Shown here piece after piece: positions 1-41,970 of a DNA stretch of 55,026 nucleotides. Numbering within the stretch: position 1 is the stretch's first letter; every line of letters starts with the position of its first letter. The position numbers and the translations under genes are program-made. The stretch lies in the IMG/VR virus record IMGVR_UViG_3300012665_000831, positions 1-55,026 of that record. The stretch is one strand, 5' to 3'. Source of the DNA: a virus. Lineage: Duplodnaviria > Caudoviricetes. The notes beneath the pieces were generated by a model. The model saw only the letters and a list, made by a program, of their open reading frames with translations. It did not search any database and had not been told where the DNA came from.

Positions 1-1300
1 ATCCCGCATTGATATTACTACTCTTAAGAGGGGGTAAACTATAACCGTTAGGCATGAATAATCTGCCATCTTGTCCAAACGTCCAATTACCGTTAACAGT
101 TTGAATGGATACGCTGCCGTGTTGGCTAGCTGTGTTGCCGTTACCAGCAATAATATCTACATTACCGCCATAGCCTTTATCAGCCTCAATACTATCAGTA
201 GCACTACCTGCCTGAATGTTTACATTACCACCATAAACGTTAGTTGAACTGCCAACGCTCATTTGAGCATCACCTGCTCGTAACTCTACGAAGCCGCCGC
301 CCCTGCCTGCTTGACCAGTGCCACCGCGAATATAAACGTAACCGCCTTCGCCACCTTTTGCGCCAGTTCCTAAGTCGTCGCTGGTCTCGCCGCCCTGGCC
401 ACCATGAATTTCGATATTACTGCCGTAGCCGCCGTTGCCTGTGGTACTCCAAGTACCGTAGCCACGTTGTCCTCGAATCTCAATATTGTAATTGCCACGA
501 CTGTCGCTGTTATATTCTTGTTGAGTGATAACAACGTTACTAGTTCTTTCGCCTAATGCTAGTGTAGGACCAGTTGAGGTGTTACCAGTTCCGTTTGCTA
601 CGGCCAGTGATGGTAATCCGATAGTACCATCTGGTTTAAATAGCCATGTACCTCCGTTGGTGCCAAGCTGAATTTCGCCGTGTAGACTGTTGCCACTGCC
701 ACCTGCTGTTATGCGAACATCACCGGCAGAACCGTTTGTACTATAGCCACCTTGAATGTCCACATTTCCGCCTTCGGTATAACCATCACCGCCTTGAATG
801 TTTACATAGCCGCCATATCCTTCTGTGTTGCTGTCAGCATCACCTGCGTAGATTTTAATGTCACCGCCGTCTATATCGCTATCACCACCCCAAACATAAA
901 TGTCACCGCCTTCGCCCGATCCATTAGCACGTTGTCCTTGGATAATCAAGCGTTGTGCGTTACCGTTTAGTGCTGGCGCTGGTCCTGTGATAACTGACTG
1001 GAATGTGCTATCATCAAACTGTAATATCTGTGCGTTTTGTACTCCGCCATTGTGTAGGTCAACAGTTCCGTATGTGAATGAACCTCCACCACCGCCCGAA
1101 ACAGTTGCCCAACTCAGCTCACTGCCGTTGGTAGTAAGATACTTTCCAACGTTTCCTGATTGTGCAGGGATTTGAATATCTAACGATGCTGTAGTATACA
1201 GCTCGGTAAAGTTTTGATTTATCTTATCAAATGCTGTGCGTAGCGGATCACCGCTACGGTCATTTGCTTGACTACCAATGTTGATTATTTGCTTTGTCAT
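1..1300 (-). CDS. Virion/tail-fibre-like protein with T4 gp9/gp10-type N-terminus (3' end runs off window; absent from ORF track)
   Basis: ATG at 1300 overlaps the upstream TAA (TAATG). Hand translation MTKQIINIGSQANDRSGDPLRTAFDKINQNFTELY... stays open to base 1, with many GGxVxIxGG repeats. Confidence 0.85.
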   Translation of the reverse strand, partial: MTKQIINIGSQANDRSGDPLRTAFDKINQNFTELYTTASLDIQIPAQSGNVGKYLTTNGSELSWATVSGGGGGSFTYGTVDLHNGGVQNAQILQFDDSTFQSVITGPAPALNGNAQRLIIQGQRANGSGEGGDIYVWGGDSDIDGGDIKIYAGDADSNTEGYGGYVNIQGGDGYTEGGNVDIQGGYSTNGSAGDVRITAGGSGNSLHGEIQLGTNGGTWLFKPDGTIGLPSLAVANGTGNTSTGPTLALGERTSNVVITQQEYNSDSRGNYNIEIRGQRGYGTWSTTGNGGYGSNIEIHGGQGGETSDDLGTGAKGGEGGYVYIRGGTGQAGRGGGFVELRAGDAQMSVGSSTNVYGGNVNIQAGSATDSIEADKGYGGNVDIIAGNGNTASQHGSVSIQTVNGNWTFGQDGRLFMPNGYSLPPLKSSNINAG

Positions 1301-4300
1301 TATACTTTTCCTATAGCTACTTCGATGACGGAGATTTCTCCAGTGTCTTTATCTTCTAATGCTTTGCCTATAATACTGCCCAACTTTGGATCGTGCGCTC
1401 TCACAGCAACGCCTGGAGTACCAGATGTTGTAAGCATATCGCCTTTCTTGATTCTACCAAGTACTTTACATGGAACACGACCTGCTAGTGCAATTAGTGC
1501 TCTTGGACCTTGTAGTTGATCGTTCATAATGTAAGCAGGGTTTGTACTGATTACACCAGCTAGTCTAGTATCACCAATAGTTGTTGTGGTAGTAACTTCA
1601 GCATCACCACCGAACACTAATACAGTTCCAACTTCATACTCTTTATCAGCTGAATAGTATTCAGCTAAGTCAGCACCGTATGTAGCAGCCAAGCTACCAT
1701 TGATACCCCAGTTACCTACAATGTTACCAGCAGTGCCTGCACTACCAGCATTCAATGTTGTTGAATATAGTGTACCAGTTCTAGCATCAATACTACCTGT
1801 ACCTAATGTAATGCTACTGGTTGTTGCTAAACTCCATGCACCTGTAATAGTACCTGTAGTTGCCGCAGTGCCTGCAGTCAATGTATAACTCTTTAGTGTA
1901 CCAGCAGTTGCATCTAGTTGACTTGATGCACCTAATGCCCAGTTACCTACAACTGTACCAGCAGTACTTGCCGCACCAGTAGTTAGTGTTGTTGACTTCA
2001 ATATGCCCAAGCTAAAGTCAACTTGGCTTGATGATTGAACAGCATACTGACCAGTAATAGTACCAGCAGTTGCGGCAGAACCTGTAGTGATAGTTGTAGC
2101 TTTTAATGTGCCACCGCTAATATCCCATGTACCAAATCCGCTTGCTACCGCAGTTCCTGAACTTGAACCAATTGCGCTCAAGTACTTAAAGCCAGCTGGT
2201 GTAAAGAAATCAACAGCATTTGATCCAGTATCAATGATCTTATAGCCGTCAACTTTAAGTTGCTTGGTATCTATCTCACCAGCTGTACCATATTTGACTA
2301 ATGTTGAATTAGTACCGTCTGTTGATATTGCTAGAATGCTTGCACTGCCGTTAGTACCACCATACGTCATTGCACCAACACCGGATGTGAACTTTAAGTT
2401 AAAGCCAGCATCTAATAGTGTCTGCGCACTTTCCTCACGTGGGTATGTTGCGCTACCTGTAAAGTTAGCAAGGATACTGCCGTTACCAATATTGGCCATT
2501 TCAGTTCTTGCAACACCGCCATCTTTGATGCCAACCCATCCGTCTGTGATGTTAAAGTTAGCACTATCAAAACTTGCCAAGCCGCTTGCTGCCTGCTTCT
2601 GTGCCGCAGTGCCTGTTGGGGCACTTGCACTAACATCAGCTAGTGTCATTGACAACTTACTTTGCACAATAGCAGCCGCTGCATTTACGTCAGCGTTGAC
2701 AATAACACCTGGGTTGATCTGGAAGTTGACCTGCGCATTTAACAAGTCAACTACTGAAGTTCCAGTGGTATGTGTTGCAGCCGTGTTACCGGTTGAAATA
2801 CCAAACTTTGTATCAGTTGTAGTTGATAGTCGTTGAACACCGTCTAGTCTGTTAGCGCCATAGTTTGTTGAACTGTAGAAGAATATTTCATTACCAACTT
2901 TAACATAACCTGGGCCTGCGCCAAACGAGCTAGCATTTGCAACAGTAATGGTTGTTACTGCGCCTGCTAACAAACTAGTAATAGCAACAGCAAGTGTTGT
3001 TGGTACTGCGTTAGTTAAGGTAGCACTCATGTCTCCTGCAGGAGTGGCACTTATCATAGCTTTACTACCGCCAGCAAAGGCAGCAATGTCACCTGATACC
3101 GGAGTAAACACTTCTACGTCTAATAATTCAGTTAACTGATCGTACAGTTTAATTTGTGCATCAACATAGGTCTTAGACACAGCATCGTTGATATCAGTAG
3201 GTGGAGCTAAGTTGATCAACTTGAAGTTGTTGGCATTAATGTTGCCCTTCATGGCCAATGCACCGTTCAATGCTAGGTAACCAGGACCTACTAGGTTACT
3301 TGCAGAGATCGGACCACCACCGTGGTCAAGACCTAAACGCTTGTCAATGTATCCACGTGTAGCTGATTGCACAGGAACAGCGTCTGGAGCATTGTTAGTA
3401 AAGCTAGCATCTGTTGAGAATTCACTTACAACAACACCACGTTTGAAACCAATACCGTCCAAGTTACTCAACGCAATTGACGCTGAGAATGTAACTGTAC
3501 CAGTACCTTGGTCAACTGTAAAGAATCGACCTACACGGAAGATACCGTTTTGGTCAGTTGTTACATAGAACACACGACCTACGCCTTCTTCGTATGTTTC
3601 GTTTTCTGGCTTACGTGTAATCGCAGGGTTACCATAAATTTGATATGGATAGTTAGTAGTTGAGTAACCACCAGTACCGATATCTAAGAAGTCATGTCCA
3701 GTTGCACGGCAAGTACTAATACGTGTTGTAACCTGTCCTTGTGTTCCTGCCGCATAACCTAAACGAATAGTAGTTGCGTCAATGTTATTAAATGGTTTAC
3801 CAATACCGCTAGCTACGTTAGTTGCACTAGTAACTTCTTTAGTAATAGTTGTAGTAGTAGCACTAGACCATGTACCCGGATCATATGGATATGTTAGTGT
3901 AATACTAGTTGTTGAGCTAGCAGTACATAGATATAATCCGTTATAGATAGGGTTTGTGTTACCAACAATTTGATAATACTTTCCAGTAGCAGGAGCAGTT
4001 GTAGCTCCAAAGTTTAGCACAACTGAATATGTTGTGCCACTACCTGCAGTCTTACTTCCAAATCCAGTAGCAGTAATTGGAGTACCAAAGTTAAAGCTGT
4101 TAGCAAGGAAAGTCATTGCACCACTTGCAGTAGTCAAAGCAAAGAATGTTCCTGCAATGGCATTAGCATAACTTGTTGCAACTTTAATTTTGCCAGCACT
4201 TGCATATGCAATGTAGTAAGTTGTACCTGTGACAAGATTACCAAAGCCCACTCCGGTAAACACAATAGTGTTACCTACATACAAGTTACTAATAGTACTC

Positions 4301-7300
4301 ATAGTAATCAAGTTAGTAGTAACTTCAGTTGCTGAAATAGTTCCGCTAGTGTTAGGATCAGTCTTGTAGGCCAGCGTCATTGTTGATGTGTTTACACCAG
4401 CAGTAGCAGTAACGTTAGTACTAGAAGCCGCTGTAAGAACCGGCACTAAAATTGCGTTGTTATCGCCTGCAACTTCAACTTGTAAATCGGGCAAACTAGT
4501 ATAGTTGTAACCTGGATTTACTACCGTAACAGTATCAATACTTCCGCCACTGATCGTACAAGTAACCAGCGCATCAATAGTTGCGCCACCGCCGCTAATT
4601 GTAATAACAGGAGGAGTTAAGTATCCACTACCACCGTTTACAATAGTAACACTACCTAGTGTTGCAACTTTAGTTGCAGTTACACTAGTGCCAGCTGGCA
4701 AGTAAATTGCCGGACTTACTTTGAATTGAGTTAGACTTACAATTTCAGTTAAGTTAACGTTACCTGTAATAGTCGCACCGGTAACAATCATACCTACATC
4801 AAGTGATGCAGTACTTGATACAGTTACTAATGTCTCAGATACAATAGCAGTAACTTGTTTTGGACCATTATACAAAGTATTGGCATTGTCAGCTACGTTT
4901 ACATAACTATCAACTGATTGCTGAGTTAACTGCCAAGGTGTGTCAAATGTTATTAACTTAGTAGTAGCTATAGAACTATCAGCAATTGATCTAAAAGTCA
5001 TGCCTGGAATAATAGTTCCGACACCACCGATGTTATATAACGGTGTGTCTTCAATAGTTAAGTACGGAGGACGATTACTAATGAAGCTTAAATTTGCACC
5101 AGGGGTACTATCCGGAGCACCACTTAGTACTAGTGTAGTACTGTTAGTAATACTAGCAATGGTTTGTCCACTGACAAATCCGTTTCCACTAACTTCCATG
5201 CCGGCGTGCATGCCTGTGGTATCACTTACTTTTAAAGTTGTACCGGAACTTCCAACTGGGTTATATGTGGCAAATACAGTATCCGGTGTCGGAGTATAAC
5301 TGTTAACATTATGTATTCTACCATTCCAACCTGTAATATATGTACCTTTGTTTATCTGGTCAATAATGGTTTGCTTACTGAATGCTAGAATAGCAATTCG
5401 AGTATCACCCACATTCAGACCCATAGTCTTTGAAGGCTCAATTGGATCAGTCTGACTAATCTTTGCCGGGTCAATAACTGGCTTGTAGTAGCTAAATGAT
5501 GTGTCTGTTGAAAGAACGGCTTGGTTAGCTGGTAATAGTTCGCCTGTACCTTCTGTTAGGTTATATGTAATAACACGATAGATACTAGCCAAGTTATCAC
5601 TATACTGTAACGCAGTTGAAGGACGAGTTGGGTTTACGTTGGCAATGCCTAAATACTTGTTATTCTGTAATGTTCGAATAGTAACTAACTGTCCATTATA
5701 CAATGCTGTAACCAAACCAACTGAAGACGTACCGTTGTTACCAGCAGTAGACAAGTTTAGTTTTAGAATGTTTACACCGTTGACAGTAACAGCAGTTCTT
5801 TCAACAGCGTTTACTTCGTAACGTGTAATACCCGAACCTGCTAGAGTATGATCAATTTCAAGTTCTGAAATATTCTGAGGACCATAATCGTAGTCAGTAA
5901 TATAAACAGCCAACGACTGTTTAGCAACAGTAGGTGTCATTTCGTTTGCAAACAAACCTTGTTTGTAGACTCGAGCTACCTGAATCATGTTGTCTGCTAG
6001 GTTTACCTCGTCTGGTAATTCAGTTACGTCATAACCTGTAGCACGTAGACCGTATGTTCCGTGTGAGTTAGAACCTGCAACAGAACGAATCTGTCCACCG
6101 TTACTTGCCCAATAGTGAGTATGACAGTAGTATGAGAACGTTGAAACTTGTTCAGTTACACCACCGTTGTTAGCAACAATACCATAACCTAAGTCGTTAA
6201 TCATGGCAAAGTCGTTAGCCAACATGGACTTGTTACCGCCCATCTCAATATTAATAGTTGTTCCAAGACCTTCGCTTAGGTACACAATGATACCGGCCGC
6301 AATGCTTGCCTTGGCACCTAAAATAGTTGTACGAGCACCTGTTAGTAATGAACTTACTCCTGTAAAGTTGCTTGGTGGAGTATAAGGTGTAGTTGTGGTA
6401 CCGCCTAAGAGAATATCATTTAAGATATCAACTAATGCGCCAACTGCTGTAGCAACAGTTGAATTACTTGCTGGTAAATTAGTAACTTGTGTAAATGTAT
6501 TTCCAACTGATTCAGTAACATCTGTGTTAACGACAATCTGCTGTAGCACAGTCTTCATTCTGTTATAGGCAGCAATGGTCACTGTTTCTTCACCGGCAAT
6601 GTAACTTGTTGTTCCTCTAAAGTACGCAAGACCTGCATCCTGTGTCATTGAGTTCCCACCGTACATTAAATCATAAATGAGTGCATCAACTACATAGCCA
6701 ACATCTCTATAACATATTGATACGCTGTAATTTGGAATTTGTGCAACATTATAGTTTGCACCAATCCAAGATACAATTTCTTTTTGTATATAAGAACGAT
6801 TGGCTGCTAATATGTCTCTAGCATTAGTATACGGCGATGTTTGCCATGTTAGTGCTGGATATGAAGAAACTGGCACACTAGCTTCACCGTTGGCAAAAAT
6901 GTCAACAATAATTGACATTCTGTCCTCTATGATTGCCTGTGCAGTAGCATTACCCGGGATGGTAGCTAACACTTGATTCTTGGCTTCATTGATTGCTTGA
7001 ATTGTTTTGTTTAACTGAACATTTCCTCTAACTAGGCTGGAGTAAGCACGAAGATATGATCTACCAGCATTTATAGATTGGAAGTTTGAACCAGTTACTA
7101 AATCGTACATTACTGAGTCAATGATTAAACCAACGTCACGTTCGCATTTTACTTTATCATAAACAAAGCCACCGTTCCATGGAGTGGCAGTATCCATTGT
7201 CATTACAACAGTTCTTGTACTAGCATTGTAGCTTACAATGTCGTTAATCTGATAACGTGTACCGGAGATAAAGAACGCACATGGAGGTTGTGGAGCACGT

Positions 7301-10300
7301 ACATCAAGACCAGAGTTTACTTCACCGGTAATAGTTAAAGTGCCGCCGTTGTTAGCAACTGCGGTAATAGTTCCTTTTAGTCGTCCAGCAAACCCGTCAA
7401 TATACTGACCACCGGCAAAACGCTTGCGGTTAATTGATTGTGAGAAGCTCGAGCAAACTTGTCCGTATGGTGACTTGGTTAAAATTTGACCTTCTGGGTC
7501 AAGTACCATGGCAAAACCGCCATGTCCTTGGAATGACATATTGCTTATACGTACAGCATCGTTACACAAGAATATGTCCATCTCTTTGTTATTCTTTGGT
7601 AGCGAATCAATATCTAATGGATCGACTAGATAGTGTCGACCGTAATTAATAGTACTATATAAATTCCAATCACCTGACTGACGCAGACCCGATATATCAA
7701 AAGGATATATCACACTACAGTTCATGAAGTTACCTGATACGCTGTCAACTACAGCCTTACCAGGAAGCGGGTTAGTACCTGGGATAACAAGTACCTTACC
7801 AATCCATGATGAAGGCGCTTGGCCAGTACCAAGAGTTGCAACCATCACACCAGATGTTGCACTAATATTTAAAGTAGTGTTAGTTGCATAATCAGTAGCT
7901 GTATCAATTGGTCCTAACTCCATCGCATCAATAATAGCATCACGATAGAACAATACTTTACGCCATGGTGATTGACTGATACGATCCTTTGGACGAACAA
8001 TTGTTCTACGGAATTCATCGCCTTTGATAGAACAGTTAGTTGGAAGTTTGATTGGATAATCTTCGTAGTAAATACCTGCTTCTACGAAAATAACAATTTG
8101 CAAATCTTTAACGCTTTCACCGAACTCTAATAGTTCTCCTACTTGGTAGTAACCAGGTTTAGTCAAACGTGCAGTAATAGAATCGCTTGTGTTTGATAAT
8201 CCTGGATTGTATGTAACAATGTTAGCATATGCAGAACTTGAAACACCAACTAGTACTTTAGCTGGTAAGATGTCGTTGTTTGCAGGGTTACCTTGGTCAA
8301 CATAGCCGTTACCGCCGTTGGTAAATCTAATAGTCCATAAGCCTGAACCAAACGTTGCAGTAGGAGCTGCTCCAAAACCGTTAACAATAATACCAATCAA
8401 CGTATTCATGTTGACAACAAAATCATCAATAGCCGGTTGACTTGGCGCACCTCTATTACCAATCATGCCATAATCGGCACTAGGTAATGTACCACTTATA
8501 TTAATAGTTTGTGTATATAATGTTTGGTAACGAGTTGCTGTAGTTTGATTTAAAACTTGTGTAGCAACTGCTTTAGCATAGTTAATACCATCGAGCGTTT
8601 CTTTGTATTGTGTTCCAATAGCAATTGACTTTGCACTAGTGTTTCTGTAGTAACTCTTACCTGCGTTGATACTTTGATAAGTGCCGCCGGTAACCAAGTC
8701 AATGGCCATTGCTTCAATGATATATCCTACATCTCGGAAACAAATTGCTTCGTCGTAATTGAATCCACCTTTGTATGTTACATCAAGATACTTGATAGTA
8801 TTATCTTGAATATTAGTTTTTTCTTCTAATACTGTAAGTCTAATGTCTTGTAAGCCTTGAGCGTATCCTGTTAGATCAGGATATACAGTGTCAACTGTTA
8901 ACGATTCTGTAGCAATTAGATCTTTAATGTTTGTAAACAATGTATTGATCTTACTGCTTGCTTCAGTGCCATCGGCAAAATTTAAATCAATTACTTGAGC
9001 TACTTGGAATGACGGAGACTGATATGATGTAGTAACTTCAACGTTGGCAATAATTTGCGCAATGATGTTTTGAATATAATTAATGGCTTCTACAGTCTGT
9101 GTAATTTGTCCGTTAACTTGGCTTAATGTGCCAACCCAATACTGCTCACCTGAAAACACACTAGCATAGTTTCCGCCATAGGTTACATCATATGCAATTG
9201 ATTCAATGATGTATTTTAAATCTCGTTGGCAAGTGGCTGCATTAAAGTTAAAGCCTGAGTAGTTAGTTTCTACCCATCCGATGATTTCAGCTTGTAGGAA
9301 TGGAATGTTAGCTAACATTAATTCTCTTGCGCTGTCATACCCTAAAGAAATATTTTCTGGATCGTTATAGATTATTTCTGGACGTGCGCTCAATCCTAAT
9401 TCTAACATGTCAATAATGATCTGGAAACAGCTATTGATCTTTACTAGCGCCGCAGAGTCAGTAATGATCGGATAGGTTTCATTTACATAGGTGATTGCCG
9501 CATTTCGTAATATAGTTCTATTTGCATTAGCTGTGCCTAAAATACCCGTTCTGGCTGCACGTAGAACACTTGAAGTACCGCCTGACGGACTAACATCAAT
9601 ATCTACAATAGTAGGTGGTGTATTCACACTTACTAGATTTTTTACAATAGTTGCTAGTTCTGAAATTCTTGTTCTAGTAGCAACCGCATCGGTACCAGAA
9701 CCACTGACTCTTGAATACGTTTGATTTCTATATTGTTTCTTAGTTGTTTGATATACAACTGTCGGAGTTTGATTTTGTATAATTGCCTGTGCTAGTTCGT
9801 TGATATAATCAACTGAATCTAATGTTGCTGACAATTCAGCATTGGCAATTTGTCTTGTAACGCCGTTCCAATACTGTTGTCCTGCATATACGCTGGCTAC
9901 GTTTACACCAGTAGTACCATTGCCATACAGCACGTCATAAATGATAGCAAAAACAATTAAACGTACATCTCGTTTACAAGTTTCTTGACTGTATTGTAAA
10001 CCTGGAAATTCTGTTTGTAAACGAGCAATAATTTCAGCTTGAATGAATTCTACGTTGTTGATCAACAACTCTCTAGTATCAGACCTAGCACCTTTAGTTA
10101 TGCCGGTAATACTAGGTAGTGTTGGAACAGGATCATCAGTGCCTTGAATAATAGAAATAATTAAATTGATATTATCAGACACAGATTTAACAGCCGCAGG
10201 CGCCGCTGTAACAGCCGCGATTGTTAAGATTGAACTCTTTAGATTAGTCAGTACACCAATCATCTGTTCAACGTCAATACCTGTATCGGCGCTTGAGTAT

Positions 10301-11757
10301 TTTAAAGCTACTAGGATTGTTCTATAATTTGATTGAATAATTAAGTCAAGGCAAATTGAATCAATTACACTACCAATGTATGAGCTTAAATTAGGGTTGC
10401 TATAAGCAAAGTTTAAGATTGAATCTCTAACAAATTTAATACCGTCAACAGTTTGAATTAACTGATCAGCTAATACTTTAGAACTTGATTGATCGTAATA
10501 TTTTGTTCCTGCTAATACAGAGTTGTATGTAGTATCTAATACCAAGTCATACATAACCGCATCGATCATATAGCCAACATCGCGGCTACATTTTGCTTTG
10601 TCAAAAGTGAATACGTTTACATATTTGTTATTGATATAGGCAATAGTTTCATACTGAATAAATTCTTTGTTAGCACGTAACAAGTCAAATGCATTTACAT
10701 ATCCGGTGTCACCACTATTACCACCGGCTAATGTTACGCTGGTAACTTCACTAAATGTTTGATCAGGACCTTGTGTATAAGCTAAACGCTGACGATATGG
10801 ACCTGGTTCTGTTTGTGCAATGCTGATTAACCCTTCAGCGGCGAGTGCGGCTGCACCAATAGATTTATAAGCATAGTTCCAGAAGCGACCTTCTTTACCG
10901 CGCGGGCTAAGAGCTTGTGTATCATCGCCCTTTGTAGTAACAAACAAGTTGATAGCACTTGAATATGTTGAATTATCAACATAATATTTTGTTGCGGCCT
11001 GTAAATCATCAGCACCGTTTGGTGTACCTATTCCAGCAATCGCACCTGGGTGATCGTTTAACAACAACGGACCAGTCATCGAATCACCACCGCGGAATAC
11101 TACATTCTTACGTGGAAGTGCTTCTGATGCAACATAGTTACTGTTTAATAACGGATCGTAGTCAGCGTCAAGAATTTGCGGAACTAACGGTTCATCACGA
11201 ACACGTAGCGCATCTCCAATAACGCCACCTTGTGATCTAACATAGTGTGTATCTGCATATCCCTTGCTAATTGCAAGTTCATCAATAGTTGTAGTTGTAC
11301 CACGTGGACCGTGTACAGCATTGAAAGCATTTACTAAGTCTTGTGACGGGTCAGGTACCTTACCAATAGGAAATTGGTTAGAATTTAATGGGCCGCCTAA
11401 TCTTGGAGCAGGGTCACTAGCAGTTGTTGATAAGCTGTTGGTAATAGTAACTTTATCTGGATCAGTTGTATCAATACTAATACCTTCACCAGCAAACAAG
11501 GTCTTTGCCGCTAGTCCACTACCGTCTGTTTTAGAAATAATAACACGGTTTTGTCCGTAGTCTGCTACATATCCTTCGCCGTCAATGTAGCGCAATTCTT
11601 GTGCATCACCTAAATTAGTTAGGCCAATCGCACCACCTGCGCCGAAAATTGCATAAATTTCGTTAAAGTTTTCATTTACTTTACGAAACGACTCACGGAT
11701 ACTATCACCCGTACCATCGTTGCCTTGTACTCCAATATCAATTTCTTGACGTGCCAT
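1300..11757 (-). CDS. Giant virion structural/fibre protein (3485 aa)
   Basis: N-terminus IDIGVQGNDGTGDSIRESFRKVNENFNEIY is gp9/gp10-like; beta-helix motifs (VEAGIYYEDYPIKLPTNCSIKGDEFRRTIVRP); CxRD helical repeats; Thr/Gly-rich distal part; C-terminal ADLAEYY...GRVPCKV...KGDML peptidase G2-type intramolecular chaperone. Confidence 0.85.
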   Translation of the reverse strand: MARQEIDIGVQGNDGTGDSIRESFRKVNENFNEIYAIFGAGGAIGLTNLGDAQELRYIDGEGYVADYGQNRVIISKTDGSGLAAKTLFAGEGISIDTTDPDKVTITNSLSTTASDPAPRLGGPLNSNQFPIGKVPDPSQDLVNAFNAVHGPRGTTTTIDELAISKGYADTHYVRSQGGVIGDALRVRDEPLVPQILDADYDPLLNSNYVASEALPRKNVVFRGGDSMTGPLLLNDHPGAIAGIGTPNGADDLQAATKYYVDNSTYSSAINLFVTTKGDDTQALSPRGKEGRFWNYAYKSIGAAALAAEGLISIAQTEPGPYRQRLAYTQGPDQTFSEVTSVTLAGGNSGDTGYVNAFDLLRANKEFIQYETIAYINNKYVNVFTFDKAKCSRDVGYMIDAVMYDLVLDTTYNSVLAGTKYYDQSSSKVLADQLIQTVDGIKFVRDSILNFAYSNPNLSSYIGSVIDSICLDLIIQSNYRTILVALKYSSADTGIDVEQMIGVLTNLKSSILTIAAVTAAPAAVKSVSDNINLIISIIQGTDDPVPTLPSITGITKGARSDTRELLINNVEFIQAEIIARLQTEFPGLQYSQETCKRDVRLIVFAIIYDVLYGNGTTGVNVASVYAGQQYWNGVTRQIANAELSATLDSVDYINELAQAIIQNQTPTVVYQTTKKQYRNQTYSRVSGSGTDAVATRTRISELATIVKNLVSVNTPPTIVDIDVSPSGGTSSVLRAARTGILGTANANRTILRNAAITYVNETYPIITDSAALVKINSCFQIIIDMLELGLSARPEIIYNDPENISLGYDSARELMLANIPFLQAEIIGWVETNYSGFNFNAATCQRDLKYIIESIAYDVTYGGNYASVFSGEQYWVGTLSQVNGQITQTVEAINYIQNIIAQIIANVEVTTSYQSPSFQVAQVIDLNFADGTEASSKINTLFTNIKDLIATESLTVDTVYPDLTGYAQGLQDIRLTVLEEKTNIQDNTIKYLDVTYKGGFNYDEAICFRDVGYIIEAMAIDLVTGGTYQSINAGKSYYRNTSAKSIAIGTQYKETLDGINYAKAVATQVLNQTTATRYQTLYTQTINISGTLPSADYGMIGNRGAPSQPAIDDFVVNMNTLIGIIVNGFGAAPTATFGSGLWTIRFTNGGNGYVDQGNPANNDILPAKVLVGVSSSAYANIVTYNPGLSNTSDSITARLTKPGYYQVGELLEFGESVKDLQIVIFVEAGIYYEDYPIKLPTNCSIKGDEFRRTIVRPKDRISQSPWRKVLFYRDAIIDAMELGPIDTATDYATNTTLNISATSGVMVATLGTGQAPSSWIGKVLVIPGTNPLPGKAVVDSVSGNFMNCSVIYPFDISGLRQSGDWNLYSTINYGRHYLVDPLDIDSLPKNNKEMDIFLCNDAVRISNMSFQGHGGFAMVLDPEGQILTKSPYGQVCSSFSQSINRKRFAGGQYIDGFAGRLKGTITAVANNGGTLTITGEVNSGLDVRAPQPPCAFFISGTRYQINDIVSYNASTRTVVMTMDTATPWNGGFVYDKVKCERDVGLIIDSVMYDLVTGSNFQSINAGRSYLRAYSSLVRGNVQLNKTIQAINEAKNQVLATIPGNATAQAIIEDRMSIIVDIFANGEASVPVSSYPALTWQTSPYTNARDILAANRSYIQKEIVSWIGANYNVAQIPNYSVSICYRDVGYVVDALIYDLMYGGNSMTQDAGLAYFRGTTSYIAGEETVTIAAYNRMKTVLQQIVVNTDVTESVGNTFTQVTNLPASNSTVATAVGALVDILNDILLGGTTTTPYTPPSNFTGVSSLLTGARTTILGAKASIAAGIIVYLSEGLGTTINIEMGGNKSMLANDFAMINDLGYGIVANNGGVTEQVSTFSYYCHTHYWASNGGQIRSVAGSNSHGTYGLRATGYDVTELPDEVNLADNMIQVARVYKQGLFANEMTPTVAKQSLAVYITDYDYGPQNISELEIDHTLAGSGITRYEVNAVERTAVTVNGVNILKLNLSTAGNNGTSSVGLVTALYNGQLVTIRTLQNNKYLGIANVNPTRPSTALQYSDNLASIYRVITYNLTEGTGELLPANQAVLSTDTSFSYYKPVIDPAKISQTDPIEPSKTMGLNVGDTRIAILAFSKQTIIDQINKGTYITGWNGRIHNVNSYTPTPDTVFATYNPVGSSGTTLKVSDTTGMHAGMEVSGNGFVSGQTIASITNSTTLVLSGAPDSTPGANLSFISNRPPYLTIEDTPLYNIGGVGTIIPGMTFRSIADSSIATTKLITFDTPWQLTQQSVDSYVNVADNANTLYNGPKQVTAIVSETLVTVSSTASLDVGMIVTGATITGNVNLTEIVSLTQFKVSPAIYLPAGTSVTATKVATLGSVTIVNGGSGYLTPPVITISGGGATIDALVTCTISGGSIDTVTVVNPGYNYTSLPDLQVEVAGDNNAILVPVLTAASSTNVTATAGVNTSTMTLAYKTDPNTSGTISATEVTTNLITMSTISNLYVGNTIVFTGVGFGNLVTGTTYYIAYASAGKIKVATSYANAIAGTFFALTTASGAMTFLANSFNFGTPITATGFGSKTAGSGTTYSVVLNFGATTAPATGKYYQIVGNTNPIYNGLYLCTASSTTSITLTYPYDPGTWSSATTTTITKEVTSATNVASGIGKPFNNIDATTIRLGYAAGTQGQVTTRISTCRATGHDFLDIGTGGYSTTNYPYQIYGNPAITRKPENETYEEGVGRVFYVTTDQNGIFRVGRFFTVDQGTGTVTFSASIALSNLDGIGFKRGVVVSEFSTDASFTNNAPDAVPVQSATRGYIDKRLGLDHGGGPISASNLVGPGYLALNGALAMKGNINANNFKLINLAPPTDINDAVSKTYVDAQIKLYDQLTELLDVEVFTPVSGDIAAFAGGSKAMISATPAGDMSATLTNAVPTTLAVAITSLLAGAVTTITVANASSFGAGPGYVKVGNEIFFYSSTNYGANRLDGVQRLSTTTDTKFGISTGNTAATHTTGTSVVDLLNAQVNFQINPGVIVNADVNAAAAIVQSKLSMTLADVSASAPTGTAAQKQAASGLASFDSANFNITDGWVGIKDGGVARTEMANIGNGSILANFTGSATYPREESAQTLLDAGFNLKFTSGVGAMTYGGTNGSASILAISTDGTNSTLVKYGTAGEIDTKQLKVDGYKIIDTGSNAVDFFTPAGFKYLSAIGSSSGTAVASGFGTWDISGGTLKATTITTGSAATAGTITGQYAVQSSSQVDFSLGILKSTTLTTGAASTAGTVVGNWALGASSQLDATAGTLKSYTLTAGTAATTGTITGAWSLATTSSITLGTGSIDARTGTLYSTTLNAGSAGTAGNIVGNWGINGSLAATYGADLAEYYSADKEYEVGTVLVFGGDAEVTTTTTIGDTRLAGVISTNPAYIMNDQLQGPRALIALAGRVPCKVLGRIKKGDMLTTSGTPGVAVRAHDPKLGSIIGKALEDKDTGEISVIEVAIGKV
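1690..2140 (-). repeat. About four tandem ~35-aa repeats at the distal end of the giant protein
   Basis: LKATTITTGSAATAGTITGQY / LKSTTLTTGAASTAGTVVGNW / LKSYTLTAGTAATTGTITGAW / LYSTTLNAGSAGTAGNIVGNW. Confidence 0.8.
6640..10610 (-). repeat. Six dispersed helical repeats C-x-R-D-[VL]-x-[YL]...D-[LV] in the giant protein
   Basis: KCSRDVGY, TCKRDVRL, TCQRDLKY, ICFRDVGY, KCERDVGL, ICYRDVGY. Confidence 0.85.
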
Positions 11758-36140: not shown

Positions 36141-36698
36141 TTAAACTTCGTCTTCATTATAGGGAACTGGTCTCCAACCTAGGCGATTTAAATCCAATTC
36201 AATTTCTTCAGTTACAACGCCTTCTGGCACGTAGTCGCGGCCCTCTGGATCCGGAGTGGGTTGATAATGATCTAAACCAAACCCAGCTTCGTTGTTGCCA
36301 ATGCCACTACAGTACCAATCAATGTAGTCGCCCTTTTCTTGCATGTCAGCAACAATACCACCAGCATGGCGCCAACTGCACGACCAAGTTTGACCTTTTA
36401 ACTCTTGCCAAAAATCTCTGCTTTGCCAATCCATGTTGCACATGGCCGCATACAAATTCTGAGCATAGTTATCACTCTGTTTGACTTTGTCACAAAGTTC
36501 TTTGCTACTGCGAAGATCGTACTCCATGTTGTGCTTTTGCCATTTGGGATCGTGAATCTTATTGGCTTCGTCAATCTTAATTTGTTCCCACATGTCAATG
36601 TAGGATTGATTTGGCTTTTCACCCTTTTCTTCTGCCCGTCGAATTGCGCCTTCTTTTTGAAAGGTATGCCGATCAGGGCTTGATGCTACTTTTTTCAT
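36141..36698 (-). CDS. Hypothetical phage protein
   Basis: YAQNLYAAMCN...WSCSWR...DYIDWYCSG; ATGA overlap supports start 36698. Confidence 0.78.
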   Translation of the reverse strand: MKKVASSPDRHTFQKEGAIRRAEEKGEKPNQSYIDMWEQIKIDEANKIHDPKWQKHNMEYDLRSSKELCDKVKQSDNYAQNLYAAMCNMDWQSRDFWQELKGQTWSCSWRHAGGIVADMQEKGDYIDWYCSGIGNNEAGFGLDHYQPTPDPEGRDYVPEGVVTEEIELDLNRLGWRPVPYNEDEV

Positions 36699-37018
36699 TG
36701 TGGGTGCCAATCACCAATCATACAGTGTAGAAACTCATGTCCAGCAGTATGTTGACTTACTTTACGTCCTACAATGATTGTACAGTCTGTAGGTGTCCAA
36801 AATGCACAGGCTTGTACTTGGTATGCGAACCCACCGTTGCCAACTTTTTTACTATATGAGTCGCATACTTGCTGAGGGTTATCGACGGGCATCCAAGTTA
36901 TTTTCTTTGTAACAGTTGCACCTGCATTAAATTTTCTATTAGGATCGTCATTATAATTGGAAGCAGAAACAGTAATGGAACTAGCACATGCCAATGCTAC
37001 TAAAAACTTTGCCTTCAT
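36695..37018 (-). CDS. Small exported HExxH protein
   Basis: Signal peptide; GHEFLHC. Confidence 0.7.
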   Translation of the reverse strand: MKAKFLVALACASSITVSASNYNDDPNRKFNAGATVTKKITWMPVDNPQQVCDSYSKKVGNGGFAYQVQACAFWTPTDCTIIVGRKVSQHTAGHEFLHCMIGDWHPQ

Positions 37019-37046
37019 ATAAACCTTTCTTTGCCTAAATTAAAAA

Positions 37047-37146
37047 TGGTACAGACGGTAGGATTCGAACCTACAAAGGCAGTCTAAGACCAAGCCCCGT
37101 ACCCTCCCCGAAGGGAGGAGGTCTACCATATTCCACTCACGTCTGC
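37047..37146 (-). tRNA. Atypical 100-nt tRNA-Leu-like RNA without a canonical anticodon loop
   Basis: Acceptor GCAGACG/CGTCTGT, A73, encoded CCA; Leu-type D loop GGAATATGGTAGA; T arm GTAGG-TTCGAAT-CCTAC; anticodon position holds CCTCCC-TTCG-GGGAGG; long variable arm. Confidence 0.75.
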
Positions 37147-37152
37147 ATTATA

Positions 37153-37181
37153 ATTGTATACTCATCAAGCACGACTGTCAA
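37153..37181 (-). promoter_or_regulatory. sigma70 promoter for the tRNA-like RNA
   Basis: TTGACA-N17-TACAAT, 6 nt upstream of the RNA 5' end. Confidence 0.8.
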
Positions 37182-37183
37182 TC

Positions 37184-38174: not shown

Positions 38175-38203
38175 ATTGTACTATCTAATGTTAGATACGT
38201 CAA
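38175..38203 (-). promoter_or_regulatory. sigma70 promoter
   Basis: TTGACG-N17-TACAAT. Confidence 0.7.
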
Positions 38204-38793
38204 CCTGGATGTTTAATCTTACTGTAGTCAAAAGTCCAATCTGGATCTAACTTTTGGTATAGTACCCATTGTGGTGTATATTTTATAGTAACAGGGAATG
38301 GTACTTGATTTACACCTGTGTAGAATAGACTATCTGCTTGCCTGTTCTTTTTAACACCTGCTCCATTCCTAATGAAGACGTTCATTAACTTTGAATTGTA
38401 GTCGTTAAATGTAATTGCAAGTTGTTTATAATTATTGGCTTTGGCCCATTTAACCTGAGCGGGAAATAAATGTGAGCCGAGTAAAAATTTACCACGGTAC
38501 TCTTTGTTCACCCAGGAACGTATTCCACATATTGCGATGTGTTGATTGAAGTCGCTTTGATATATTCCACTACAGGCAATGATTTTATCATCATTAAGCA
38601 ACACGAAGAATTTACCGTTTTCTGCAAAACGTTTTTCAACTTCTAACAAATAAGGTAATGTGTGAGTTTCTGTAGGCCAATTGTTATCCCACATGTTGAC
38701 ACTAGCAGGTTGCTCAGTATCTAATAGTGCGGCACGGCAGAAATCAAAAAAGTCTTGTTGATCTACATCACTGTATTCTACAACAGTATACAT
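38200..38793 (-). CDS. GNAT-fold acyltransferase-like protein
   Basis: KIIACSGI...RSWVNKEYRGK...KWAKANNYKQL. Confidence 0.72.
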   Translation of the reverse strand: MYTVVEYSDVDQQDFFDFCRAALLDTEQPASVNMWDNNWPTETHTLPYLLEVEKRFAENGKFFVLLNDDKIIACSGIYQSDFNQHIAICGIRSWVNKEYRGKFLLGSHLFPAQVKWAKANNYKQLAITFNDYNSKLMNVFIRNGAGVKKNRQADSLFYTGVNQVPFPVTIKYTPQWVLYQKLDPDWTFDYSKIKHPG

Positions 38794-38794
38794 A

Positions 38795-39454
38795 CTATTT
38801 GCCTGTGATGAAATCCAATTGAGGATAATTTATATCATAAATTTTATGGCGAGATTCTAGCTCAACAGGATGTAATTCAGTATGTCTAACACGCATTTCA
38901 GGTTTTAGAATTCTGCTTTTAATTACAATATCTATATCGTATACTCGAGATCCAATCAATCTCCAGAACCGTTCACGCTCTATTGGAGTTTCTGCAGGTA
39001 CTTCAGCTTCTATTTTTAGATCGTATCTTCCAGTGCTAACAAGTGTATTTTTCTGCCACAATTTATCATATAGAACTTCGTGCTTCTTGGCAATGGAATA
39101 ATAGTATTTCCAATAGTGCCTATGCTCTGCAATCTCAAATGCTGTTTTAATCAGTAATCCAATTTCAGGGCGTTTAAAACTAAAAGTTGGGGTAAACACT
39201 TTTGTAAACATATACACAATGAACCATGCAGGATCGTTTATTCGCCAAAATGCTACACAAATAAATGCAAGCAACTCATCGCCTTCAAAGGCTCCTAACA
39301 TGAGATAATGTGAATTACTACTAAGATATTTCTTTAGTATCGGTTCGTAGTTTAGTTGATACGGACGCTCGGCACCACCAACTTTATCTTTTAAAGCTGT
39401 TATCTCAAGAGCCTGTGTTAAATGGGTTTCGTCACATATTTTAATCGTAATCAT
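38795..39454 (-). CDS. Divergent GNAT-like protein
   Basis: LGAFEGDELLAFI...IGLLIKTAFEIAE; acetyl-CoA loop degenerate. Confidence 0.5.
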   Translation of the reverse strand: MITIKICDETHLTQALEITALKDKVGGAERPYQLNYEPILKKYLSSNSHYLMLGAFEGDELLAFICVAFWRINDPAWFIVYMFTKVFTPTFSFKRPEIGLLIKTAFEIAEHRHYWKYYYSIAKKHEVLYDKLWQKNTLVSTGRYDLKIEAEVPAETPIERERFWRLIGSRVYDIDIVIKSRILKPEMRVRHTELHPVELESRHKIYDINYPQLDFITGK

Positions 39455-39484
39455 GTCTACCTCTGAATATGAATTATATATTCT

Positions 39485-40390
39485 TTATTGAGATTCTAGT
39501 TGCAGGATTTGATCAATATTTCTAGTTACAGTGCCGCGATAGGGCAAGCCGTTATATTTTGTTGCAAGGTGCTGTTCGAACTCTGCAATCAAAGGGTCAA
39601 CAGTTTCAAACCCAGTTTTTTTAATTCTGTCTATCATATCAGGGTACGCTTCTCGATAACCAATTAGTTTAGTAGAGTTGATTCCTAGCTTACCATAATA
39701 ATGATCGTTGGTTAAGTTATAAAACCATTTTGACTTTGTAAAGCCGACAACCATTTCGGGCGTCCATTTAAACCATTCCATGATTGCAGGCCTGTTAGTT
39801 TCTTTGATATACTTTGACCAACCTATATCGTGTTCAAAGTCACACATTAGCCATTCGACTTTTTTACTGTAATCGTCAGAGGGTCTGTACCAGGTAGGGT
39901 CGCTTGCGCCTGCAATTGCCACTTCGTCAAAATAATCTAAAAACTTCAATTGCGGCAATGCCCTAGGTCTGTCGACTTGTGCTAGTTCACTTACGTTCTC
40001 TGCATCATTTAGATAAAACTTCTTGAGATTGAAATCTATAACTTTATAAGGAACACTTAAACTCTCTGCTATAGTAATTGCATATGATACATCGTATAAA
40101 TTTATATCGTCTTCATATCTAAAAATATAAGCAATAAAGTCCTTGCCAAGTTCTTTGTACAGTCTTATTAATAGTTCACTTTCACTACCACCTGAAAATA
40201 ATACACCTAGTCGTTTACCTTCATAGAAGTCAGCGGTCGATTTTGCATTGAACAACAATGCATCTTTAAATGTTTTTATTTTTGAACTTAGAGTGTTAAA
40301 CGAAGTTTCAAACTTTTCATCTGCACTAGATCGACGATCATTACCGTTGTAGTGCCACTGATACCAGTTGTTTAAACTAGTGTTAATCAT
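39485..40390 (-). CDS. Adenine-nucleotide alpha-hydrolase (PP-loop)-like protein
   Basis: VLFSGGSESE (variant of SGGxDS); ATGA overlap gives start 40390. Confidence 0.65.
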   Translation of the reverse strand: MINTSLNNWYQWHYNGNDRRSSADEKFETSFNTLSSKIKTFKDALLFNAKSTADFYEGKRLGVLFSGGSESELLIRLYKELGKDFIAYIFRYEDDINLYDVSYAITIAESLSVPYKVIDFNLKKFYLNDAENVSELAQVDRPRALPQLKFLDYFDEVAIAGASDPTWYRPSDDYSKKVEWLMCDFEHDIGWSKYIKETNRPAIMEWFKWTPEMVVGFTKSKWFYNLTNDHYYGKLGINSTKLIGYREAYPDMIDRIKKTGFETVDPLIAEFEQHLATKYNGLPYRGTVTRNIDQILQLESQ

Positions 40391-41970
40391 AATAGCACGG
40401 TCTTCCATCGTTCGCCTGAGGTCATAGCTGTGGGCACGAATTTAGAATCAAATGGCAATCCTACGCTTTTAAGGAGAGCGTGTTTGTATTCAATTGCCTT
40501 ATGATATTTTAGTTCAAGTAAACTTTTACAATCTTGATTTTGATATGCTTCTTCTCGACTTAATGTTACTAACTTTTCTATATCAAGTCCGCATGATACT
40601 TCTTCATTAATACCAAAGCCTGCATTTTTCCATCTTGGATTATAATGAACTTTATCTTGAATGCCCCTTGCTTGCCTTGCACATACTCTAAAATTTAATC
40701 CAGTCTTATCGTTATGCCAGTGATGCGAATACTTTCCATTTGCGCTATTCGGAAAGTAGTAACCGTATTTTTCAAAATTTAATTCAAACTCTGAAGTCAT
40801 TTTTAAGTCAGCATCAAATCGTAGATGCGGCGGGTTAATGTGTAATGGATTAATTGACCAATGGTCTAACGGATTTTTTGTAGAGTCTAAGAACTCATCA
40901 AGTTCTTTTGCAGTGTCTAGATTATCTGCAGGGAGTCCAATAATAAATCCAGAGGATGTTAGTACATTTTTCCATTTTGTATTTCTAATATCTCTGATAA
41001 AATCCATTTGCTCCATTGGAGGAACACCTTTGCCGATAATCTTTGCAGACTTAGCATTTATAGTTTCAATTCCAAATACTGCTGAACGTAATCCCGATTC
41101 TCGTAGGTAATCAACCTGTTCAGGAAATCGCATCAGCAGGTCCATTCTTAGATAAGAAGTCCACGTGATCTTGAAAGGAAGTTTAGAAAAAACTTCGTCG
41201 TACAGTAATTTAACTTTATCCAGAGAATCGTTATAAGTATCATCGCTGAATATATAATTAGTAGTCCCCCACCGTTCGTAGTTATCTATAAATTCTGCTC
41301 TAAGTACTTCTGCTTTTTTAATCCACTCGCCTTTGGTCTTTCCGTTTAGCGGGAACGCACAAAATTTACATCTAAAAATACAACCTCTGCTGATTTCAAT
41401 AGGCAATGTCATCCCTGGCAGCATTATATCAGTTTCTTCATATCGAATCTGACTGCTGGTAAAATGTTTAAACTCCTGTCCTTTTGTAACACCTAAATGG
41501 TATGAAAGATCTGTTTTACCTTTACCCGCTAACCAATCAGTGTAGTCAACTACTTCTCTATCTGAATAGCTCATGAAATGATGGATTTTATATCGAGGCC
41601 AATTCCATGTCTTGAATCCGCCTGCAACTATTTTAATCTTAGGATTTAATTTTCGACAATATACTATAAAATCTATTAATGGTTGATCGGCACCGATAAG
41701 AGACATGTTTGCCAAATCTTGCGGCATATTAAATAGTGTTGCAAAAAAATTAGTGCTAAAGCCAACCCACAATGTTTTATCGGAGATAAGTTTTTCAAGG
41801 ATTCTCTTTAACTCATCATCGAAGCCGTCAAACACTGTAATATCAATCACTCTAACAGAGTAGCCTGCTTGCCTCAGTTCTGTTGCAATTCTATAGCCAC
41901 CGGTGGTTTTTATTCCGCCAGGAAAATCTGCATTCCCCGTAAGGATAATGCAATTTACTTCTTCCATCAT
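40387..41970 (-). CDS. B12-binding-domain radical SAM protein (paralogue of 12712..14277)
   Basis: EISRGCIFRCKFC, DDTYND, GIET, IATELRQAGYSVRVID. Confidence 0.88.
   Translation of the reverse strand: MMEEVNCIILTGNADFPGGIKTTGGYRIATELRQAGYSVRVIDITVFDGFDDELKRILEKLISDKTLWVGFSTNFFATLFNMPQDLANMSLIGADQPLIDFIVYCRKLNPKIKIVAGGFKTWNWPRYKIHHFMSYSDREVVDYTDWLAGKGKTDLSYHLGVTKGQEFKHFTSSQIRYEETDIMLPGMTLPIEISRGCIFRCKFCAFPLNGKTKGEWIKKAEVLRAEFIDNYERWGTTNYIFSDDTYNDSLDKVKLLYDEVFSKLPFKITWTSYLRMDLLMRFPEQVDYLRESGLRSAVFGIETINAKSAKIIGKGVPPMEQMDFIRDIRNTKWKNVLTSSGFIIGLPADNLDTAKELDEFLDSTKNPLDHWSINPLHINPPHLRFDADLKMTSEFELNFEKYGYYFPNSANGKYSHHWHNDKTGLNFRVCARQARGIQDKVHYNPRWKNAGFGINEEVSCGLDIEKLVTLSREEAYQNQDCKSLLELKYHKAIEYKHALLKSVGLPFDSKFVPTAMTSGERWKTVLL

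Follow-up and report, generated by a model that had tools for sequence, protein, structure and literature searches.

The usual explanations for the tRNA genes of phages are codon supply and the replacement of tRNAs cleaved by host defence systems. In E. coli, the portions of PMC9976931 on which we draw place leucine identity in A73, A15-U48, G18G19, A20a and contacts that the D loop makes with the T loop, and not in the anticodon or the variable arm; citing Larkin 2002, they also state that E. coli leucyl-tRNA synthetase (LeuRS) still charges tRNA-Leu when the anticodon arm and the variable arm are both missing. Phage T4 encodes RNAC and RNAD (species 1 and 2), stable small RNAs among its tRNA genes, whose roles are given as unknown in the parts of PMC3014915 and PMC9697503 used here. 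Here we describe a tRNA-like gene of 100 nt in the IMG/VR virus record IMGVR_UViG_3300012665_000831, the whole 55,026-base stretch of which we call the window. This element combines the body of a tRNA-Leu with a tetraloop-capped hairpin in place of the anticodon arm, and we are highly confident that it is a real, non-decoding RNA gene derived from tRNA-Leu. The family to which it belongs is single-copy, has a strong promoter of its own and is found in more than 100 contigs of uncultured jumbo phages from freshwater.

Architecture of the element

The window is a fragment of a jumbo phage, with a completeness of 15% according to CheckV. The element runs from G1 at 37146 to the end of an encoded CCA at 37047, on the minus strand, and is made up of the parts given below. 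R1 denotes a covariance model trained on 18 short-type sequences of the family, and the counts of changed pairs refer to 100 distinct relatives taken from IMG/VR viral contigs.

37047..37146, minus strand: whole tRNA-like RNA gene, scoring 116.8 bits under R1
37140..37146, minus strand: 5' strand of the acceptor stem, GCAGACG, pairing with 37051..37057; 6 of 7 pairs with compensatory change
37119..37137, minus strand: D arm, with an irregular stem and a Leu-type loop (A14, A15, G18G19, A20a)
37103..37118, minus strand: substitute for the anticodon arm, CCUCCC-UUCG-GGGAGG; base of the helix conserved, 5 of 6 pairs covarying, tip hypervariable
37076..37098, minus strand: long variable arm, in the form of a bulged hairpin capped by the triloop UUA; 8 of 9 pairs with compensatory change
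37058..37074, minus strand: T arm, GUAGG-UUCGAAU-CCUAC; T loop UUCGAAU in 97 of 100 relatives
37047..37057, minus strand: 3' strand of the acceptor stem (37057..37051), discriminator A73 (37050) and CCA (37049..37047)

The acceptor stem (GCAGACG/CGUCUGU) has seven pairs, the wobble G1.U72 and six Watson-Crick pairs, and its 5' strand is followed by U8 and G9. The D loop, GAAUAUGGUAGA, is of the tRNA-Leu type and carries G18G19; the D stem is built of A:U, G:C, U.C and G.A layers and one extra closing pair. The minimum free energy fold recovers every part of the element but the D stem, and lengthens the UUCG hairpin to seven pairs through U:G at 37119/37102. The variable-arm hairpin of 23 nt reads GGGGC-UU-GGUC-UUA-GACU-GCCUU. 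A preliminary description of the locus, made from the sequence without database searches, had recognised a tRNA-Leu-like RNA with a UUCG hairpin; that assignment is confirmed, with the corrections that the gene lies on the minus strand and that its D stem is irregular.

Set against a canonical tRNA, the element has the 7-bp acceptor stem, the discriminator, the CCA and a T arm whose loop fits UUCRANY. The 5-bp anticodon stem and 7-nt anticodon loop are replaced by a helix of 6-7 bp with the 4-nt loop UUCG, and with no anticodon loop there is no leucine anticodon (NAG or YAA). The fold energy by itself is ordinary (z = -0.73, with 38 of 200 shuffles folding equally well), and it is because of the relatives that the element stands out from chance.

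The 5' strand of the hairpin and the bases before it read ACCUCCU, and the 3' strand reads GGAGG (37102..37124, minus strand), letters that we take to be those of the anti-Shine-Dalgarno and Shine-Dalgarno consensus. ACCUCC recurs in nearly all of the listed relatives. The requirement for a stable C/G helix may be the sole cause of this resemblance.

ARAGORN reported neither a tRNA nor a transfer-messenger RNA (tmRNA) anywhere in the window; the preliminary description had expected tRNA finders to return an undetermined or pseudo call. Rfam (Rfam 15) yielded no match for the element at gathering scores, the tRNA model RF00005 reaching 26.5 bits, under its gathering cut-off of 29. When a 401-nt region was searched at E up to 10, this sub-threshold tRNA was the sole meaningful match; matches to snoRNA, a flavivirus CRE and other families were rejected as chance. 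Searching 50,697 cultured-phage records by blastn with the region and the element returned only a 32-nt T-arm match to a tRNA-Arg, and tblastn of the neighbouring 185-aa protein against cultured-phage records returned no match. A sequence pattern for the element had 0 matches among prokaryotes, with 185,579 species represented by one genome each and exact matching liable to miss diverged copies, and no description of such an RNA was found in the full-text literature, supplementary files lying outside that search.

Conservation, covariation and ancestry

The exact pattern of hairpin and T loop occurs in 18 viral contigs of IMG/VR, and a looser pattern that leaves the whole middle free occurs in at least 119. 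Under R1 the family scores 62-120 bits and true tRNAs at most 37, with one copy per locus. Across the 100 relatives, 98.4% of cells in the alignment are standard pairs and 22 of the 30 pairs show changes on both sides; in the T stem three of five pairs have compensatory change, and in the D arm three pairs are invariant in all 100. None of 500 shuffles matched the observed pairing and covariation, and partners slid along the sequence were at most 53.4% paired. A small MAFFT alignment, not fitted to the model, was concordant (98.9% paired, 10 pairs with compensatory change). Compensatory change on this scale points to selection and not to decay: the element is a conserved gene family, neither a decayed gene nor an assembly error. 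The preliminary description had argued against decay on the ground that all stems still pair. The compensatory changes bear out its conclusion.

The discriminator is A73 in 100 of 100 relatives; 97 of them end in an encoded CCA and the other 3 in CCG, so that the intact A73 and CCA noted beforehand prove to be features of the family. The extra pair that closes the D loop covaries (G:U in 64, G.G in 26, U:A in 8 and C:G in 2). We considered the UUA triloop of the variable arm as an ochre-suppressor anticodon and rejected it: the stem below it covaries, and the loop itself varies (UUA, AUU, AUA and others).

An anticodon-like loop is found in none of the 100 relatives. The base of the substitute arm is conserved (CCUCC/GGAGG or variants) and its tip is hypervariable, the terminal loops being UUCG in 32, ACCCC(C) in 20, AACAA in 7, CUUG in 5, GCAA in 4 and rarer sequences in the others. 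A terminal loop of 7 nt occurs in a single relative, on an 11-bp stem. Bare tetraloops cap the window-type stem (UUCG, UUUG, UUAG) or a shorter one (CUUG); the other tips are extensions that reach about 40 nt at most, are interrupted by an internal loop (3x3 or UAGUA/GAAC) and differ in their terminal loops. A normal 7-nt anticodon loop was looked for in close relatives and not found, and the reading of the element as a non-decoding mimic stands. The idea that it might decode quadruplets is rejected, as the arms of relatives span 14-40 nt and end in unrelated loops. Because the family cannot decode, neither codon supply nor tRNA replacement fits it. Nor is the element needed for decoding, since four related records (282-356 kb, 80-96% complete) carry 27-41 canonical tRNAs, and the two tRNA clusters that were inspected each include tRNA-Leu(UAA), tRNA-Leu(UAG) and tRNA-Leu(CAA), all with encoded CCA.

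These comparisons leave hardly any credence for the views that the element is a tRNA-Leu pseudogene in decay, that it arose from faulty assembly, or that it decodes in an unusual way through a loop of 6 or 8 nt. In favour of such a reading, ARAGORN, which makes no call in 76 of the 100 relatives, forces a tRNA call on the other 24 and on the copy in a 300-kb relative (G001), and a truncated remnant is present at one locus (L208). However, the supposed anticodons of the 24 are mutually inconsistent (tcg, ggg, tag, ttg, gct and four-letter ones); they are drawn from the tetraloop, shift with its letters, and can be read only with a C.A mismatch in the stem. The G001 copy, labelled tRNA-Arg(tcg), likewise needs a shifted register and a C.A mismatch, and the long-arm relatives are unreadable as anticodon arms. 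The 100 distinct sequences come from independent contigs and keep their stems by compensatory change, and their promoter register is conserved as well. For annotation, the consequence is that gene finders overlook the element or misname it, some copies being labelled tRNA-Arg, Pro, Gln, Leu or Ser by ARAGORN.

The elaborate tips of some relatives would suit a natural tRNA scaffold, in which the body provides stability and processing and the displayed hairpin is the functional part. Inserts with UAGUA/GAAC or 3x3 internal loops, the ACCCC(C) ends of 20 of the 100 relatives and GUAAC(A/G)AAC-type loops all lend themselves to this reading, and E. coli is reported to accumulate tRNA scaffolds engineered to carry inserts in their anticodon stem (PMC3753655). 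Nevertheless, the window type and at least 22 other distinct sequences display only a tetraloop (UUCG, UUUG, UUAG or CUUG), and the rest of their structure still covaries. Since the tetraloop-only forms keep a covarying body, the body must matter by itself, and we regard a pure scaffold as quite improbable.

Long-arm forms are exemplified by L024:3031-3141 (minus strand), L031:7307-7424 (plus strand) and L036:421-538 (plus strand). They share a recurring UAGUA/GAAC internal loop, which resembles a loop E or S-turn, or a 3x3 internal loop, and they end in ACCCC(C) or GUAAC(A/G)AAC loops. These internal and terminal loops may be add-on modules specific to lineages.

The affinity of the family is with tRNA-Leu, as the preliminary description had proposed. 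In every set compared, the true tRNA that scored best under R1 was a tRNA-Leu (36.8, 34.9, 36.2 and 33.3 bits); the tRNA-Leu of T4 scored 33.4 bits, as against 31.8 for tRNA-Tyr and at most 29.3 for tRNA-Ser. A syntenic sample anchored on the 185-aa protein, comprising the best 80 of at least 588 matching contigs, places this affinity in a genomic frame. The element lies just upstream of the 185-aa gene in 51 of the 80, and in 4 its site is taken by a genuine, promoter-led trio of tRNA-Met, tRNA-Leu(UAA) and tRNA-Arg(UCU). One contig, L208, has a remnant with the T arm and the 3' acceptor strand only (L208:1960-1999, plus strand), before genes of 112 and 182 aa. The remaining 24 have no element before the 185-aa gene, which where inspected is packed right behind other open reading frames (ORFs); 18 of these 24 loci were re-examined with filters off. 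In the trio lineage, a genome that is 95% complete lacks the element altogether. The pattern of trio, element and remnant would fit the exaptation of a tRNA-Leu gene.

A separate observation among the tRNAs of these phages is a 92-nt tRNA-Ile(tat) with a long extra arm, as called by ARAGORN, at L129:12896-12987 and L130:9108-9199 (both minus strand). A type II-like tRNA with a UAU anticodon, here in two related jumbo phages, is unusual.

Promoter, transcript and genomic setting

The element is headed by a promoter of its own, as had been claimed for it:

37153..37181, minus strand: sigma-70-type promoter, TTGACA (37181..37176), 17-nt spacer, TACAAT (37158..37153), with 11 of 12 consensus matches

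Six nucleotides separate the end of the -10 hexamer from G1. Of 104 distinct upstream sequences, 98 have a -35 box TTGACN in the same fixed position and 103 a -10 box TAnnnT at -12 to -7 from G1 (TATAAT in 63, TATACT in 30, TACAAT in 6). The spacing of bacterial promoters places the start just past the -10 box, which here is G1. Given the fixed register, transcription should begin at G1; the primary 5' end would then already be the mature 5' end, so that an RNase P step would not be needed. The genuine tRNA trio, unlike the element, starts 10 nt past its -10 box. At the other end, a short U-run is usual after the CCA in relatives.

No public sequencing run contained half of the sampled sequence words. 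The comparison covered the assembled contigs of four runs, of which three are RNA libraries, each from a different study, and the fourth is probably DNA. Sequence from relatives occurs in contigs of all three RNA libraries, and in two of them contigs include the 3' half that relatives conserve. For one close relative, coverage has a depth of about 3 from 36875 to 37240, a span that takes in the gene and both flanks, and one RNA-library contig of 769 nt begins in the 3' part of the element of a relative and continues into the ORF downstream.

The gene that follows in the window is probably co-transcribed with the element:

36695..37018, minus strand: first ORF downstream; 107 aa, signal peptide, HExxHxxxGxxH at the C-terminal end, start codon 28 nt past the CCA

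The 107-aa ORF has conserved cysteines, keeps HExxH in 61 of 62 distinct homologues and matches no Pfam or PHROG family; from its sequence it looks like a tiny secreted zinc-peptidase-like protein. Homologues of it lie downstream of the element in 80 of 126 loci and the 185-aa gene does so in 100 of 126, and further co-directional ORFs of 65, 72, 222 and 229 aa (the last searched as its 181-aa ATG form) occur in 57-74 of the 126. The 185-aa protein likewise matches no Pfam or PHROG family; its AlphaFold model has a mean predicted local distance difference test (pLDDT) of 74.6, Foldseek returned nothing from the PDB at E <= 0.001, and the ESM Atlas offered no usable match.

This arrangement raises the possibility that the element is a cis-acting 5' module, which would stabilise or punctuate the operon mRNA and be cut off after the CCA by the host's tRNA 3'-processing enzymes, with no role in trans. 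A co-directional ORF soon after the CCA in most loci speaks for it (the 185-aa gene in 100 and the 107-aa ORF in 80 of the 126), as do the absence of any terminator-like site between the element and the ORF in the window, the 769-nt contig that joins a relative's 3' part to the downstream ORF, and a sister lineage with real tRNAs at the head of the same operon. The other settings of the family tell against it. Although the position before the 107-aa and 185-aa ORFs is the commonest of four settings that share the promoter, one clade has the element before an unrelated 63-aa ORF, one record has it inside a tRNA cluster, between tRNA-Arg(UCU) and tRNA-Ser(GCU), and another has it alone before an ORF on the opposite strand; the promoter register is kept in both of these records. 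Conversely, the 185-aa gene lacks the element in 24 of 80 relatives, and a mere stabiliser would not need an invariant A73, an encoded CCA and a Leu-type D loop. Because the same promoter register is found outside the usual operon, the settings speak for an autonomous RNA that acts in trans and against a dedicated 5' leader, and we consider a purely cis-acting module unlikely.

Upstream neighbours are not conserved, with a hydrolase, a GNAT protein and a 219-aa ORF in 5 of 126 loci each and a PP-loop ORF in 7 of 126; more than 2 kb of upstream sequence is present in 105 of the 126. In the window, an accessory block lies upstream at 38200..41970 (minus strand), made up of a radical SAM protein (527 aa), a QueC-like PP-loop protein (307 aa), the 219-aa ORF and the GNAT protein (197 aa), and this block is common to few close relatives only. 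A primer role at a replication origin was considered and is unlikely, there being no skew turn in the window. At some distance, the window also contains a single ORF of 3485 aa at 1300..11757 (minus strand).

Possible charging and roles, and comparison with known RNAs

The letters that specify leucine in bacterial tRNAs (A73, A14, A15-U48, G18G19 and A20a) are all present in the element and conserved in the aligned relatives. Since all of them are kept, it is plausible that host LeuRS leucylates the RNA. From the conserved spacing of the near-consensus promoter, we would expect the sigma-70 RNA polymerase of the host to start at G1 and host enzymes to trim the 3' end to the encoded ACCA. Covariation supports a fold into a tRNA body, with the acceptor and T stems stacked, a D/T elbow and the long variable arm, and the rigid tetraloop-capped helix in the position of the anticodon arm precludes codon pairing. 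Published identity rules make leucylation by host LeuRS the most likely next step, after which the RNA might serve as a leucyl carrier outside translation, or might soak up proteins that recognise tRNA by its top half and CCA end.

We hold the chances about evenly balanced that the element is, as a whole, such an autonomous, trans-acting, non-decoding mimic of tRNA-Leu, leucylation included. Several points weigh against that proposal. Compared with real tRNA-Leu, the D stem contains one nucleotide too many and two layers that are non-canonical, and these could block LeuRS. Searches of five phage records, of which two are at least 94% complete, detected none of Leu_Phe_trans (PF03588), FemAB (PF02388), ATE_C (PF04377), LPG_synthase_C (PF09924) and CDPS (PF16715), and neither a class Ia synthetase (PF00133) nor a CCA-adding enzyme (PF01743) was found in five such records. 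The RNA evidence is weak, as carry-over of DNA into the libraries is possible and the contigs do not show transcript ends. As for the comparative data, the covariation alignment was fitted to the model, which favours structure; the pattern scans preset parts of the D and T loops, so that invariance there is partly built in; and the protein-anchored sample avoids this bias yet represents the best 80 of at least 588 loci.

Among specific roles, one that the preliminary description had suggested, a leucyl donor for nearby GNAT-like enzymes, finds no support: those neighbours occur in 5 of 126 loci and the transferase families just named were not found in the five records. There is likewise no conserved linkage to an enzyme of the Fem, L/F-transferase, ATE, MprF-C or CDPS type. 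It is possible, if doubtful, that a LeuRS-chargeable, leaderless mimic of this kind serves as a private carrier of leucyl groups, or that it is sacrificed as a substrate to host immune enzymes that attack acceptor ends. If so, the family would represent a new class of RNA-based counter-defence or of metabolic cofactor, arrived at by exaptation of a tRNA gene, and its hypervariable arm could reflect an arms race or lineage-specific add-on modules.

A related but distinct proposal, which we put forward with little confidence, is that the RNA, produced in large amounts, remains uncharged and acts as a decoy or sponge, binding some host protein whose recognition site on tRNA is the elbow, the acceptor stem or the CCA end. 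Such a protein, for instance a tRNA-processing enzyme or a defence toxin that targets the 3' ends of tRNAs for modification, could be titrated away from real tRNAs without disturbing translation. The near-consensus promoter and the very stable capped helices are in keeping with a decoy, as are the strict conservation of the top half and CCA beside an anticodon arm that is free to vary, and the heavy investment of the carrier phages in tRNAs. Yet no candidate target turned up in the analysis, and a generic decoy would have no use for the full Leu-type identity set. Decoys of anticodon nucleases in particular, which the preliminary description had raised, are implausible, there being no anticodon loop to be recognised.

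Whichever role applies, the family is a natural test case for the functions of the tRNA top half off the ribosome: charging, binding to EF-Tu, processing or use as an immune target. The gene and its promoter together occupy only 180 bp, which makes direct cloning and assay feasible.

Among described RNAs, one to compare with the element is canonical type II tRNA-Leu, including the UAA, UAG and CAA species of these phages. The two have in common the 7-bp acceptor stem, A73, the encoded CCA, the UUCGAAU T loop and a long variable arm, and in both the D loop is of the type GGAAU..GGUA(G/U)A. They differ in that the element has no anticodon loop, an extra nucleotide and non-canonical layers in the D stem, and a longer, bulged variable arm, and in that it has its own promoter from G1, whereas tRNA-Leu is processed from a cluster transcript. 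Under R1 the gap is wide, the family scoring at least 62 bits and tRNAs at most 37.

Other non-decoding RNAs carry tRNA-like parts as well. The tRNA-like domain of tmRNA is also a chargeable acceptor/T module with no anticodon. The element, however, has no tag reading frame and no pseudoknots, ARAGORN and Rfam report no tmRNA, and its third acceptor pair is A3:U70 and not G3.U70, the alanine signal. YrlA, a bacterial Y RNA that works with Ro/Rsr, is likewise non-coding and non-decoding and mimics the D and T arms. Its topology is the opposite one: the ends of YrlA RNA lie in the Ro-binding stem, whereas those of the element form an acceptor stem with ACCA, and the helix in the place of the anticodon arm is closed. 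No Y RNA or YrlA match was obtained from Rfam for the 401-nt region even at E up to 10. Some jumbo phages do encode Ro-type (ROT/TROVE) proteins, as the part of PMC7824862 consulted reports.

The likeness to T4 RNAC is limited to one end, where RNAC finishes in a T-arm-like hairpin, CCGGG-UUCGAAU-CCCGG. RNAC is longer (139 nt) and lacks a Leu-type D loop, and its annotated span, which is downstream of tRNA-Arg within the tRNA region of T4, includes neither an encoded CCA nor an annotated promoter of its own. Under R1, T4 rnaC reaches 19.1 bits over part of its length only, and at this level of comparison the two are not homologous. By itself, T4 rnaC (L213:2909-3047, minus strand) folds far better than its shuffles (z = -4.57). 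The family may nonetheless shed light on the unexplained stable RNAs of the T4 tRNA region.

No Rfam family matched the element, and we place it as a new family among the non-decoding tRNA mimics. In design it comes near to engineered minimal tRNA-Leu molecules and tRNA scaffolds, in which the anticodon arm is removed or replaced and the top half kept; a minimal tRNA-Leu is leucylated by E. coli LeuRS provided that A73 and the D/T-loop contacts are intact, according to the portions of PMC9976931 that cite Larkin 2002. Those RNAs are laboratory constructs, whereas the element described here is a natural, conserved family of phage genes.

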